This document shows positions 5,003 through 10,372 of a DNA stretch of 64,000 nucleotides, one piece after another; position 1 is the first letter of the stretch; each line of letters starts with the position of its first letter. This DNA comes from an uncultured Chlamydiae bacterium (GTDB lineage: Bacteria > Chlamydiota > Chlamydiia > Chlamydiales > JAJFMB01). The position numbers were made by a program, and so were the translations under genes. The notes beneath the pieces were generated by a model. That model was not told where the DNA came from. It was given only the letters and a program-made list of their open reading frames with translations, and did not search any database. The DNA lies in contig CAVOJR010000001.1 of assembly GCA_963696295.1 (NCBI GenBank), forward strand, positions 2,560,001-2,624,000. Reading direction: 5' to 3'.

Positions 5003-8000
5003 ATGCGTTTCTCACAAATCATCAGACTTTTTATTTTCTTTTTTGTTCCTTTAAACCTCTTTGCCGGGCGGTCAGCAGTACTTCTGCCCTCTACAGAATC
5101 CGACCCGAACAGTTTTGTTGCGGATTGCGTCAATGTCATCACGGGTGATTATTGCGAAAGATCGGTCGATCTTGCACTGTCCGATGACTTTTCCATACAG
5201 AGGTTTTTCAATGTAAAAAATTACATGACCGGCCAGCAAAAAGGCGGCTGGAGGATCTTGCCGACAACCTATATGGTTGTTGGGAAAGAGGGTTCTTCAT
5301 TTTTCCAACGATTTTTACGCCAGTCATCTGATAAAATTTACGCCTTTGCGGGCGAGCGTTCAGGCGCCATATTGACCTATAGCGGCAAAGGCAAATACGA
5401 CGGCGTCGAACCTCTTTCTTTAAAAGTGGATATGTTGAATGACGGAGTCGGCATTGTCAATACTTCGTTAAAAGAGATCAGCGGCCGGAATAATCATCAG
5501 AACAATGAGCTCTTTTACATGGGAAAGACCTGTAAAGCCGTTTTAGGGGATGGAACGAAAAAGATCTATCAGAAAGTGGAGAAATTGCCCCGGTTGATCG
5601 GCTGTGAAGAGTTGATACCCCAGTTAAGCACGGAGATAGCCAATCCGGAATATTACTGTTTGAGCGAAGAGACGCTGCCGAATGGAAATCACCTTTTGTA
5701 TTCCTATGACGCTGAGGGGTATTTGAGCTCGGTCGAACTAAAAAACGGGGATCAGAGCAAAACACTCGGCAACATTGATTTTGCCTACAATTTTGACAAG
5801 GATTACCGCATCACTTTAAAGTCGGATGATCGTTCCGTCGAATACCAATTTTCCGCGATTAATGGAACACAGGCATTGACGAGAGTGAGTGGTTCCCGAT
5901 TGCCCGCTTGTACATATGAATATGAGGTAAGGGATAATCTTTGTCTGCTGGTGAAAAAAAATGACGAACTCCAGATCAATTATGATCCACAAGGAAAAGT
6001 TGGAAGTCTGAAGCTCTCCGACAGGGAATATTTCTTCAAATATAATGAAGGGTCAACGGATGTGACTAACAGCTTGGGATCTGAGACTCATTATGCCTTT
6101 GATGATCGCCATCAGCTGACCGAAATCGTCAGAAATGAACCTTCTTTTCAGCAGATTGAGCGCTTCTTTTGGGGGAAAAATCCTTATGATGTAGGGCTGT
6201 TGCAGGCTAAAGCGATTGCCGACGGAAGGGGCAATATCCAGCTCTATCAAACGTTCAAGTATGATTCCTTTGGCAATGTGATAGAAGAGAAAGTTTATGA
6301 AGTGCCGGAAGGTTCGGAAGACAGCGTAATCCAAATTGATGAGGACGGGGATCTGCTGTTTGCTCACAATGAACTTTGCACAGTGAAAACGTCGGTCTAT
6401 TCCGAGGATGGGTTAAATCTGCTCGTCAGCACGCAAGATTCCACTGGTATGCAGGTATACAATTATTATCAGCCTGGTACCAGCAATCTTCTCAAGCAAG
6501 AGATCTATGACAAAGGGCAGCTGAAGAAGAAAGTTAACTTTAGCGATGATCTCTTTGTCAGCGATTTTGAGGAAGCCCAAAAGGGTGATGAATTTAGTTG
6601 CAATCCGATTAACCGCGGACCTCCGGGAGCCAACGGCGCTACGGGAGCGAAAGGGGACAAAGGGGATCCGGGCGCTAAGGGTGATCCTGGAGCGATTGGT
6701 CCAACAGGACCATGCTGTCCCGGTCCTACGGGTGCTACAGGCCCTGCAGGTTCTCCTGGAGCCACAGGTGCTGATGGAGCGACAGGCGCTGTAGGTGCTA
6801 CTGGAACCGGTGGAGCTACGGGATCTAATGGTGCAACCGGTTCTAACGGAGCTACAGGTGCTGTAGGTGCTACGGGATCTAATGGTGCTACAGGTTCTGA
6901 TGGAGCGACAGGTGCTGTAGGTGCTACGGGTGCTGGGGGAGCTACAGGCTCTGCGGGCGCTACTGGAGCTGGTGGAGCCACAGGTGCCGCAGGTGCTACA
7001 GGTAATGACGGAGCCACGGGTGCTGCGGGTGCTACTGGAGCTGGTGGAGCTACAGGTGCCGCAGGTGCTACTGGAGCTGGTGGAGCTACAGGTGCCGCAG
7101 GTGCTACAGGTAATGACGGAGCCACGGGTGCTGCGGGTGCTACTGGAGCTGGTGGAGCTACAGGTGCCGCAGGTGCTACTGGAGCTGGTGGAGCTACAGG
7201 TGCCGCAGGTGCTACTGGAGCTGGTGGAGCTACAGGTGCCGCAGGTGCTACAGGTAATGACGGAGCCACGGGTGCTGCAGGTGCTACTGGAGCCGGTGGA
7301 GCTACGGGATCTAATGGTGCAACCGGTTCTAACGGAGCGACAGGTGCTGTAGGTGCTACAGGTTCTGATGGAGCGACAGGTGCTGTAGGTGCTACTGGAG
7401 CTGGTGGAGCTACAGGTGCCGCAGGTGCTACTGGAGCTGGTGGAGCTACAGGTGCCGCAGGTGCTACAGGTGCCGCAGGTGCTACAGGTGCCGCAGGTGC
7501 TACAGGTAATGACGGAGCCACGGGTGCTGCAGGTGCTACTGGAGCCGGTGGAGCTACGGGATCTAATGGTGCAACCGGTTCTAACGGAGCGACAGGTGCT
7601 GTAGGTGCTACAGGTTCTGATGGAGCGACAGGTGCAGTAGGTGCTACTGGAGCTGGTGGAGCTACAGGTGCCGCAGGTGCTACAGGTAATGACGGAGCCA
7701 CGGGTGCTGCGGGTGCTACTGGAGCTGGTGGAGCCACAGGTGCTGCAGGAGCTACCGGAGCTGGTGGAGCCACAGGTTCCGCGGGTGCTACAGGTAATGA
7801 CGGAGCCACGGGTGCTGCGGGTGCTACTGGAGCTGGTGGAGCTACAGGCGCTGTAGGTGCTACGGGAGCCGGTGGAGCCACGGGTGCTGCGGGTGCTACT
7901 GGAGCTGGTGGAGCTACAGGTTCTGCGGGCGCTACAGGTAATGACGGAGCCACGGGTGCTGCGGGTGCTACTGGAGCTGGTGGAGCCACAGGCTCTGCGG

Positions 8001-10372
8001 GCGCTACAGGTAATGACGGAGCTACAGGTGCTGCAGGAGCTACAGGTGCTGCAGGAGCTACCGGAGCTGGTGGAGCCACAGGTTCCGCGGGCGCTACAGG
8101 TAATGACGGAGCTACCGGAGCTGGTGGAGCCACAGGTTCCGCAGGTGCTACTGGAGCTGGTGGAGCCACAGGTTCCGCTGGTGCTACAGGTAATGACGGA
8201 GCCACGGGTGCTGCGGGTGCTACTGGAGCTGGTGGAGCCACAGGTGCTGCAGGAGCTACCGGAGCTGGTGGAGCCACAGGTTCCGCGGGTGCTACAGGTA
8301 ATGACGGAGCCACGGGTGCTGCGGGTGCTACTGGAGCTGGTGGAGCTACAGGCGCTGTAGGTGCTACGGGAGCCGGTGGAGCCACGGGTGCTGCGGGTGC
8401 TACTGGAGCTGGTGGAGCTACAGGTTCTGCGGGCGCTACAGGTAATGACGGAGCCACGGGTGCTGCGGGTGCTACTGGAGCTGGTGGAGCCACAGGCTCT
8501 GCGGGCGCTACAGGTAATGACGGAGCTACAGGTGCTGCAGGAGCTACAGGTGCTGCAGGAGCTACCGGAGCTGGTGGAGCCACAGGTTCCGCGGGCGCTA
8601 CAGGTAATGACGGAGCTACAGGTTCCGCAGGTGCTACTGGAGCTGCTGGTGCTACAGGAGCTGCAGGAGCTACCGGAGCTGGTGGAGCCACGGGTTCCGC
8701 TGGTGCTACAGGTAATGACGGAGCTACAGGTTCCGCAGGTGCTACTGGAGCTGCTGGTGCTACTGGAGCTGGTGGAGCCACAGGTTCCGCTGGTGCTACA
8801 GGTAATGACGGAGCTACAGGTTCCGCAGGTGCTACAGGAGCTGGTGGAGCCACAGGTTCCGCTGGTGCTACAGGTGCTATAGGTGCTACTGGAGCTGGTG
8901 GAGCTACAGGAGCCGCTGGTGCTACAGGTAATGACGGAGCTACAGGTTCCGCAGGTGCTACAGGAGCTGGTGGAGCCACAGGTTCCGCTGGTGCTACAGG
9001 TGCTATAGGTGCTACTGGAGCTGGTGGAGCCACAGGTTCCGCTGGTGCCACAGGTGCTATAGGTGCTACTGGAGCTGGTGGAGCCACAGGTTCCGCTGGT
9101 GCCACAGGTGCTATAGGTGCTACTGGAGCTGGTGGAGCCACAGGTTCCGCTGGTGCCACAGGTGCTATAGGTGCTACAGGAGCTGGTGGAGCCACAGGTT
9201 CCGCTGGTGCTACAGGTGCTATAGGTGCGACCGGAGCTGGTGGAGCCACAGGTTCCGCTGGTGCTACAGGTGCTATAGGTGCTACCGGAGCTGGTGGAGC
9301 GACAGGTGCTATAGGTGCCACAGGTGCTATAGGTGCCACAGGTGCTATAGGTGCTACCGGAGCTGGTGGAGCGACTGGTTCTGCTGGAGCCACGGGCGCA
9401 GGAGGAGCTACTGGAGCTGGTGGAGCCACAGGCTCTGCGGGTGCTACAGGAGCTGCTGGAGCTACGGGCCATAATGGAGCAACCGGTTCTAATGGAGCTA
9501 CAGGATCTAATGGAGCTACAGGTGCCCAAGGTGCTACTGGAGTTGGAACCGCAGGTGCTACGGGTGCCCAAGGTGCTACGGGAGCATGTTGTCCAGGCCC
9601 TACGGGTGCTAATGGAGCTACAGGCCCTGCAGGTACTAATGGTTCTAATGGAGCCACAGGCTCTGCAGGCGCTACGGGTGCAGTCGGCCCAACAGGTCCG
9701 GGAGCGGTCGTTGGCCTAGACTCCACATTTGTATGGAGCTCGCAGGGTCAGAGTAATACTACTACTGCTGCTGCTGGAGCTTCTGCTGTCCCTTCCAGGT
9801 TTCAGGCGGTAGTTTTTGAACAGCCTCAAATAGGCCCTTCAACATGGACGCCCTCATGTTTCCAACACGCATCAATCCCTACAGGCAATGGACATGGTGC
9901 TACTGGAGCCACGGGTCCCACAGCATTTGCATGCCCAGAGGATGGGTGGTATTTAGTCGCTTATAAACTAGATGTGCAATCTGCGCAGGCACCAGGCAAT
10001 ACTGGAACGGCTCATACAAGGGCTATGACAATATTGACGAGGACTTTTGCCGCAGGAGGCACGGGAGCCACAGGCGCAACTATCACATTGCCTATGGCTG
10101 GCTCAGGTACAATTGTTGAGGCGCCGCTTGAAAATCACGTCTATACAATAACGAATACTGTTTTGGTTGAACTTAATGCAAATGACCTGGTGCAATTATT
10201 GTGGTGGACTACTGATCCTGGAGCCTCTGTAGAAGATACTGTTATTGGTAGTACCCTGGGAGGATCTACTACTGCATCACTGCCAATTCCTTGTGGAGGA
10301 GCAACGGGTGGTGGGTTTGCAGTCGAGGCCACAGCGTCTCTTGCGTTTACGCGTATCGTTGCTAATCCGTAG
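5003..10372 (+). CDS. Exported RHS/YD-like + collagen-like + C1q/BclA-like surface protein (~1789 aa)
   Basis: Signal peptide; [13 protein letters not shown]-terminal motif; YD-like repeats ([21 protein letters not shown]); ~340 Gly-X-Y triplets; [11 protein letters not shown] and [13 protein letters not shown]1q-like strands. Confidence 0.8.
6617..9700 (+). repeat. Collagen-coding repeat, 18-nt period (G-X-X-G-A-T)n with higher-order duplications
   Basis: GGTGCTACAGG/GGAGCTACAGG-type units; near-identical blocks at offsets of 252 and 504 nt. Confidence 0.95.

Follow-up and report, generated by a model that had tools for sequence, protein, structure and literature searches.

The DNA analysed here, called the window in the following, is a stretch of 64,000 nucleotides (nt) from an uncultured Chlamydiae bacterium (assembly GCA_963696295.1, contig CAVOJR010000001.1, positions 2,560,001 to 2,624,000), whose genome of 3.43 Mb in two contigs is referred to as G000. 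On its plus strand, an open reading frame (ORF) running from an ATG at 5003 to a stop codon at 10372 (window coordinates) encodes a protein of 1789 amino acids (aa), termed the fibre protein below. A preliminary description, made from the sequence alone, had seen in it a chimera of RHS/YD-like, collagen-like and C1q-like parts. Our analysis confirmed that the gene is real and that its product consists of a signal peptide, an RHS-derived domain, a Gly-X-Y stalk and a C1q/TNF-fold head, and none of the four findings named beforehand as speaking against this view (a misassembled junction, an N-terminus without RHS similarity, a head without C1q fold, or an architecture common in databases) was made. 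The following features were assigned to the gene and its 3' end:

5003..5065, plus strand: Sec-type signal peptide without lipobox (aa 1-21), judged by eye from the sequence
5066..6535, plus strand: truncated RHS domain of ~490 aa (aa 22-511), comprising the plug region and the opening part of the YD sheet
6536..6616, plus strand: acidic linker with Cys533 shortly before the collagen, AlphaFold2 (AF2) predicted local distance difference test (pLDDT) score <50
6617..9703, plus strand: collagen-like stalk of 341 triplets (aa 539-1567), Pfam Collagen E 1.2e-93
7676..8619, plus strand: tandem duplication of 504 nt (440 nt exact) within the stalk
9716..10372, plus strand: head of 218 aa with predicted C1q/TNF fold (aa 1572-1789), its subfamily occurring mostly on viral contigs
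10438..10475, plus strand: terminator-like hairpin with a T run, spotted by eye in the sequence

The N-terminal region, previously delimited as ~540 RHS/YD-like aa behind a signal peptide, matched Pfam RHS_repeat (PF05593, E 3.9e-9) and the YD family TIGR01643 (E 2.2e-6). It shared 40-43% identity with the opening ~530 aa of chlamydial RHS proteins that are ~1850 aa long and carry a signal peptide, the named homologs being records from Protochlamydia, Parachlamydia, Chlamydiales and Waddliaceae; these homologous proteins also have similar N-terminal starts, in agreement with the signal peptide assigned by eye. As had been stated, the module stops short of a full RHS core. In one such RHS protein that was scanned (P0004, 1844 aa, with DUF6531, RHS repeats, Rhs core and DUF687), homology to the fibre protein ends at about aa 533, and the Rhs-associated core TIGR03696, which matched P0004 at 1504-1579, matched neither the N-domain nor the head of the fibre protein, between which the collagen lies. 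The N-domain was modelled by AF2 with a pLDDT of 89 and a predicted template modelling score of 0.87, based on an alignment of 50 rows that, consisting mostly of full RHS proteins, may overstate the confidence for the fragment. Structure comparison aligned this model with residues 360-731 of the Rhs core 8qjd (VIA Z 23.9, root-mean-square deviation (rmsd) 2.8, 350 residues) and with RhsA (Z 21.9), while teneurin YD shells reached Z 13-18. Computation thereby shows the N-terminal ~490 aa, as modelled, to fold as the plug and the opening part of an Rhs cage. YD/RHS repeats with an Rhs cage fold (PF05593; Z 23.9) are what the fibre protein has in common with RHS polymorphic toxins. Neither a cleavage motif nor an enclosed toxin was found in it; in place of a C-terminal toxin followed by an immunity gene, there is a C1q/TNF fold followed by a glycosyltransferase gene. 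Since Rhs core and toxin are absent, the fibre protein is not an RHS toxin. In G000, the closest long RHS paralog (G000:C1:1547987-1551889) ends at 1301 aa, ahead of the Rhs core position, and is probably broken.

The stalk comprises its 341 triplets in four runs (11, 314, 4 and 12), of which 162/341 are GAT; position Y is Thr in 166 triplets and position X is Pro in nine, and altogether, 15 Pro and 27 charged residues were counted in 1029 aa. Thus, the collagen with its low Pro content and frequent GAT had been recognized correctly, while the wording "almost uninterrupted" was generous, as Gly occupies X or Y in 45/341 triplets and the longest run without such a triplet is 13 triplets. Based on the triple-helix rise of 0.286 nm per residue, the stalk would measure ~294 nm if fully triple-helical, which fits the trimeric fibre of ~300 nm proposed earlier. 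The 504-nt duplication, whose copies begin at 7676 and 8180, could represent either a recent expansion or an assembly artefact, so that stalk length is uncertain by ~168 aa. Length alone is not new, because bacterial collagens reach 6000 aa, as stated in passages of PMC11923368. Cys-Cys pairs are located in the stalk at 571-572 and 1529-1530, and a Cys a few residues ahead of the first triplets was seen in most fusions of this type and also in many stand-alone chlamydial collagens.

The head revealed no match in Pfam or NCBIfam, and BclA_C (PF18573) gave no match at E 0.1. Its model (pLDDT 80) aligned with F-BclA 9h38 (Z 15.8, rmsd 2.3, 134 residues) and BclA 1wck (Z 15.2), at a sequence identity to BclA of 14%; EDA-A1 and C1q domains were further best solved matches, and BxpB and ExsFA were the top Foldseek matches. 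A C1q/BclA-like terminal domain, as previously read from the sequence, was therefore recovered at the level of the model. Prediction of the head as three copies, a check proposed at that time, scored 0.82 versus 0.00 for the best of three controls, with runs sharing >=81% of contacts at pLDDT >=67; the mark was reached by 20/30 solved homo-pairs and 1/23 single chains. The head thus models as a trimer of C1q/TNF fold, though the pass may reflect likeness to solved C1q trimers. Of the BclA-type features, the long Thr-rich Gly-X-Y region is present in the sequence and the C-terminal trimeric C1q/TNF-fold head in the model only.

A second fibre gene was found on the minus strand at G000:C1:1019341-1024020. 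Its N-domain is 94% identical and passes into collagen at the same junction (93% DNA identity), followed by another stalk and another head, which is BclA_C-like (E 1.8e-7, under the cut-off). Comparison of both N-domains over ~510 codons resulted in 0.024 nonsynonymous (dN) and 0.251 synonymous (dS) substitutions per site and a dN/dS of 0.095, and the RHS piece is therefore being conserved by purifying selection in G000. In addition, a soil contig of 167 nt (depth 3.4) spans 6486-6652, reaching 131 nt upstream and 36 nt downstream of the junction; as 13 of its 14 listed differences are paralog alleles, it vouches for the paralog-type junction and not for the full length of this copy. An assembly artefact fusing an RHS gene with a collagen gene might be suspected from the highly repetitive stalk with its exact repeat of 440 nt; with the junction present in the second copy and bridged by the soil contig, and with the same architecture in five other genomes and the metagenome protein P0015, we consider it extremely improbable. 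Upstream of the paralog lies a 167-nt element resembling a miniature inverted-repeat transposable element with partial internal symmetry (G000:C1:1024246-1024412), of which >10 chromosomal copies with identities of 75-98% were detected.

Richness in A/T-ending codons of the 3' part had been taken as a sign of a fusion. The step is real, with GC at fourfold sites of 0.61 in the N-domain, 0.20 in the collagen and 0.31 in the head, compared to a median of 0.66 in G000, where 0.31 corresponds to the 2nd percentile of 1998 long ORFs. However, the non-viral head of the paralog (0.30) and the 1301-aa RHS gene of G000 (0.33) are equally AT-rich, so that the step is not diagnostic, nor does it date the fusion, which predates G000 (see below). 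Codon bias was therefore not accepted as evidence that the fusion is recent or of viral origin.

An RHS piece of >=300 aa followed by collagen was identified in at least 6/401 chlamydial genomes belonging to five family codes, namely G000 (two), G033 (two), G018, G267 (two, one frameshifted), G159 and G168, and in one metagenome protein, while an RHS-N match at 1e-30 was obtained for 83/401 genomes. This count is a floor based on the best three candidates per genome, with 30 returned loci and 20 further regions inspected; the latter were picked mostly by odd frame length, and a fusion of ~1800 aa could hide among the remainder. One of the G033 proteins shares 99% identity with P0061, a record that bears the name Parachlamydia acanthamoebae. 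Among 59 long protein homologs, only P0015, ending in Peptidase_S74, was a fusion, and the metagenome scan revealed none at 26 RHS loci. Searching shorter proteins with aa 1-600 was swamped by unrelated collagens and yielded only P0061 and two collagen-free fragments; a profile search of proteins of 183-1026 aa detected 21 RHS pieces, 20 of them new and all of these 20 without collagen. For the P0015 base and junction, the ESM Atlas returned only generic RHS matches at 0.75, and run X3 gave generic collagen words only. The RHS part of most long forms reaches to aa 517-549; shorter forms show internal or terminal deletions. In G267:C17, G389:C4 and a second G267:C46 gene, the collagen follows a short remnant matching RHS aa 489-550 or 413-549. 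G254 and G099, considered as further short remnants, were left uncounted in view of their blastp E values (0.54 and 0.094). In one lineage (G368:C3, L061:3781-6684), a protein of 968 aa joins a truncated RHS N-domain to FN3 and a fungal-type GH75 chitosanase, without collagen.

In a quick tree of 52 rows, nine fusions and the chitosanase protein formed one group (Shimodaira-Hasegawa-like approximate likelihood ratio test 95). A more careful tree of 22 rows placed the five long fusions included in one clade (94/95) and G000's own RHS in another; the fusion is therefore old and predates G000. Across the family, the heads vary (BclA_C-like, viral C1q, S74) on a constant base. The earlier statement that this architecture is not known from any described protein holds for the full-text literature searched, where we found no description of an RHS-collagen fusion or of a chlamydial collagen fibre; the architecture is nevertheless rare rather than unique, the fibre gene being one member of a small, old chlamydial family. 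The searched part of PMC3482391 contains no mention of collagen, predicted chlamydial outer-membrane clusters include RHS with no collagen mentioned in passages of PMC2811131, and an excerpt of PMC6238073 lists one Protochlamydia collagen in a composition cluster.

Regarding the origin of the head, 47 sequence relatives were found among 1.84 billion representatives. In IMG/VR, 34/45 pattern matches were confirmed, 9/34 of them on GVMAG-labelled contigs and several being near-duplicates, and collagen precedes the head in 33/34. The best viral fold matches, which are also the closest named relatives of the head, are collagen-like proteins of Edafosvirus (A0A3G4ZUD4, 32% identity, E 1e-12) and Yasminevirus (A0A5K0U9C2, 28% identity), and identity reaches 48% with a protein of an IMG/VR giant-virus metagenome-assembled genome (MAG). 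From the ESM Atlas came unnamed viral clusters, as well as one set in which 49% of the members carry C1q. A pattern-seeded scan of 185,579 prokaryote genomes confirmed 2/18 matches; both GTDB 'bacterial' loci (L146 and L147) lie on MAG contigs, of Terrimicrobiaceae and Armatimonadota, that judged by eye resemble wrongly binned giant-virus DNA. Among 400 chlamydial genomes, the head is clearly present only in G000 and G049 (four copies), the only rows of profile A3 used as head matches; this profile took in collagen columns, and its 77/400 genomes therefore mostly report collagen and not the head. In the head tree, a 98/98 split groups the fibre head with viral heads, apart from seven chlamydial outgroup heads; within the viral group it falls into a basal polytomy, where the tree tool flags long branches. 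By sequence, a head subfamily common to chlamydia and giant viruses is apparent. Of the earlier proposal that amoebal giant viruses are a possible donor, a viral link is thus supported, for the head only; the tree does not settle the direction of transfer, while the distribution of the head favours one from virus to chlamydia. The G049 heads belong to four signal-peptide collagen genes (L107 and L108, on G049:C1 and C10) that combine the same virus-type head with inserted domains; they group apart from the fibre head, which suggests a second exchange.

The fibre gene is flanked by the following features:

3569..4507, plus strand: Lpg1974-like outer-membrane beta-barrel gene, Pfam Legionella_OMP E 1.8e-16, start chosen by eye
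4563..4826, plus strand: the final 74 nt of the barrel gene, repeated three times in degenerate or partial form (region 4434-4826 with the original), found by blastn
10614..12533, plus strand: GT2-TPR-GT2 gene, i.e., two family 2 glycosyltransferase (GT2) domains and tetratricopeptide repeats (TPR), SgtA-like layout with a second GT2, Pfam GT2 E 1.5e-31

The barrel gene upstream of the fibre gene is co-duplicated with it, a 79% identical paralog being located directly downstream of the second fibre gene; the copies of its end show 100% identity over 39 nt and 86% and 91% over 74 nt. At 8/11 fusion or remnant loci, the stretch examined included a barrel that was either Lpg1974-like or of the passenger-less IAT_beta type, compared with 0/26 metagenome RHS loci (1-15 kb). 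In the reverse test, which used the best match per genome and returned 30 loci, collagen was found within ~1.5 kb at 6/21 listed barrel-only inverse autotransporter (IAT) loci versus 13/999 G000 windows. Barrel-only inverse autotransporters occur, with Chlamydiae among the phyla named in parts of PMC4943183. Concerning the GT2-TPR-GT2 enzyme, all three strong homologs in G000 adjoin collagen genes, and it is a candidate threonine O-glycosylase of the stalk. Signal-peptide-like starts, odd for nucleotide-sugar enzymes, were seen on GT2-TPR enzymes at window 10614-10670, L002:1782-2963 and L024:3649-4914; glycosylation may follow export. G000 also possesses a type II secretion locus with secretin, GspE-like, GspF and pseudopilin-like genes together.

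Elsewhere in G000, locus L002 (G000:C1:718000-735000) holds seven short signal-peptide collagen genes with C1q-like heads, two GT2-TPR genes and the only IAT_beta-like barrel of this genome. Other collagen loci include three tandem giant collagen genes in L094 (G203:C33:8000-22000), one of them a complete ORF of 2015 aa with ~1790 aa of Gly-X-Y and without RHS, and an ORF of >3200 aa in L096:8313-17999 (G313:C10), where ~25 short collagen runs alternate with a repeated ~80-aa domain before a C1q-like end. A CT351-family barrel in the window, together with the named homologs of the N-domain, marks G000 as an environmental chlamydia. The window further contains a photolyase as two overlapping ORFs (PF00875 and PF03441, 12536-13835) split or frameshifted near 13020, and, after a gene ending at 15877, a tandem repeat region (15834-16335) in which spurious ORFs repeat the same short peptides.

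Based on these data, the protein is very probably a fibre, its stalk is probably glycosylated as far as composition and neighbouring genes tell, and for the RHS piece we moderately favour the role of a functional base. Altogether, we lean slightly towards a Sec-exported, glycosylated, homotrimeric surface fibre with a swappable tip on an RHS base repurposed for export or anchoring, its production and its place on the cell surface being predicted from sequence. After Sec export, the head would nucleate the trimer and the Gly-Ala-Thr stalk would zip toward the N-terminus (precedent in PMC11923368) into a triple helix of up to ~290 nm. The stalk is poor in Pro and in charges, so that O-glycosylation of the Y-position Thr, probably by the neighbouring GT2-TPR enzyme, would be needed for its stability; glycosylated Thr renders (Gly-Pro-Thr)10 triple-helical (PMC11923368, in part), and in BclA3 peptides that contain GAT, SgtA attaches GlcNAc to the Thr (PMC7157674, in part). 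The conserved RHS piece would form the cell-proximal base, keeping the export or docking function of the parent signal-peptide RHS proteins; the combination of a constant base, variable tips and a chitosanase cargo argues for such an export or docking module. Passage through the outer membrane would probably use type II secretion with N-terminal retention on the surface as in Lcl, a type II substrate retained in this way (PMC11162425, in part), and the base perhaps docks on the co-duplicated barrel. The exchangeable tip of this copy would have been taken from the giant-virus gene pool, and long-reach adhesion to a protist host, or shielding from it, is the likely job. More tentatively, the front third of RHS proteins could be a portable export-and-display module that, with GT2-TPR enzyme and barrel, builds a glycosylated hair coat and carries cargo outside the cage, such as fibres of up to 300 nm with interchangeable tips or, in one lineage, a chitosanase; the tips would come from giant viruses of the same protist hosts and perhaps bind the same host receptors.

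Several observations weigh against an RHS-based, glycosylated fibre. A signal peptide without an RHS piece is seen in many collagens of chlamydiae, reaching 2015 aa in G203:C33, so that the piece is not needed for export as such. Some relatives retain only 60-140 aa of the RHS piece or internally deleted forms, the copy pair of G267 shows a dN/dS of 0.6 on 24 changes with one copy frameshifted, and the fusion branches are long (0.8-1.4 versus a median end branch of 0.41), so that their grouping may stem from long-branch attraction. With regard to the neighbours, 8/10 Lpg1974-like barrels of G000 have no collagen within 3 kb, 3/11 fusion or remnant loci lack such a barrel, four of these 11 loci contributed to the barrel profiles (those four being independently confirmed by Pfam), and the terminator-like hairpin lies between the fibre gene and the glycosyltransferase. 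Long collagens without an RHS piece, remnants graded from ~530 down to 60 aa, long fusion branches and the G267 pair would all suit an ordinary BclA-type fibre whose RHS piece is the decaying relic of an old recombination that gave a collagen gene its promoter and signal peptide. We regard this as unlikely in view of the low dN/dS over ~510 codons in G000, the near full-length RHS piece kept in five lineages that are only ~40% alike where compared, and the confident fold model, though the alignment behind it holds mostly full RHS proteins.

Slightly less likely still is a reverse polarity, with the head docking on the cell or building a surface layer in the manner of the TNF-fold BxpB/ExsFA and the open RHS bowl as a distal teneurin-like adhesin, or a trimer released into the inclusion. 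The TNF-fold proteins BxpB and ExsFA as top Foldseek matches of the head and the teneurin likeness of the N-domain (Z 13-18) point in this direction; against it, it is the head that varies while the N-domain stays constant, and a chitosanase cargo is sensible only away from the base. Glycine-rich polyproline-II bundles may resemble such a stalk. With extra Gly in 45/341 triplets, and with only 15 Pro and 27 charged residues among its 1029 aa, the stalk could be a polyproline-II (polyglycine) bundle or a disordered glycosylated tether, and Gly-X-Gly-type triplets would count as interruptions of a triple helix by the standard in parts of PMC11923368. We find this quite improbable, since the paralog has 257 strict triplets consecutively, other fusions are GPT-rich, and C1q and S74 heads both imply trimers.

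Among known systems, Bacillus BclA and F-BclA and Clostridioides BclA3 with SgtA are like the fibre in their Thr-rich Gly-X-Y stalk and C-terminal C1q/TNF head. BclA has a short N-terminus that targets it to the exosporium. Such anchoring by a short N-terminal domain was not found in the fibre protein, where a signal peptide and a 490-aa RHS base take this place in a chlamydial genome; it also differs by its Gram-negative intracellular host, its Sec signal and its Pro-poor stalk. The likeness to BclA3 and SgtA extends to the neighbouring GT-TPR enzyme and to GAT triplets as glycosylated by SgtA (PMC7157674, in part), whereas the enzyme next to the fibre gene has a second GT2 domain. The plug and YD sheet fold (Z 20-24) is common to the fibre protein, the signal-peptide RHS proteins of chlamydiae and the Rhs cages of type VI secretion systems (RhsA 7q97, 8qjd); in contrast, ~70% of such a protein, including the Rhs-associated core, is absent from the fibre N-domain, and the cargo is an extended fibre of 1250 aa that cannot be enclosed. 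Giant-virus collagens (Edafosvirus, Yasminevirus) have the same head subfamily after a collagen run, but their N-termini are short and Cys/Lys-rich, with no obvious signal peptide and no RHS, and their collagen is mostly charged (GKD/GEK). Legionella Lcl, as presented in sections of PMC11162425, is a type II-secreted trimer of an amoeba-associated host, with N-terminal surface attachment, collagen stalk and C-terminal head, and so resembles what is predicted for the fibre; its anchor is a short amphipathic helix, and the likeness is one of architecture, no homology being claimed. By analogy, the fibre would work like a BclA or Lcl fibre, outside the RHS toxins, on an N-terminal module for which we found no description. 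For environmental chlamydiae, it provides a specific candidate for a long surface fibre, and it is an instance of a tip that chlamydiae share with giant viruses; its base hints at a possible location of the export signal in RHS proteins of chlamydiae. In toxins and teneurins, RHS/YD domains form closed containers; a truncated piece modelled as folded, under selection and with an extended cargo would, if true, represent a new use of this fold.

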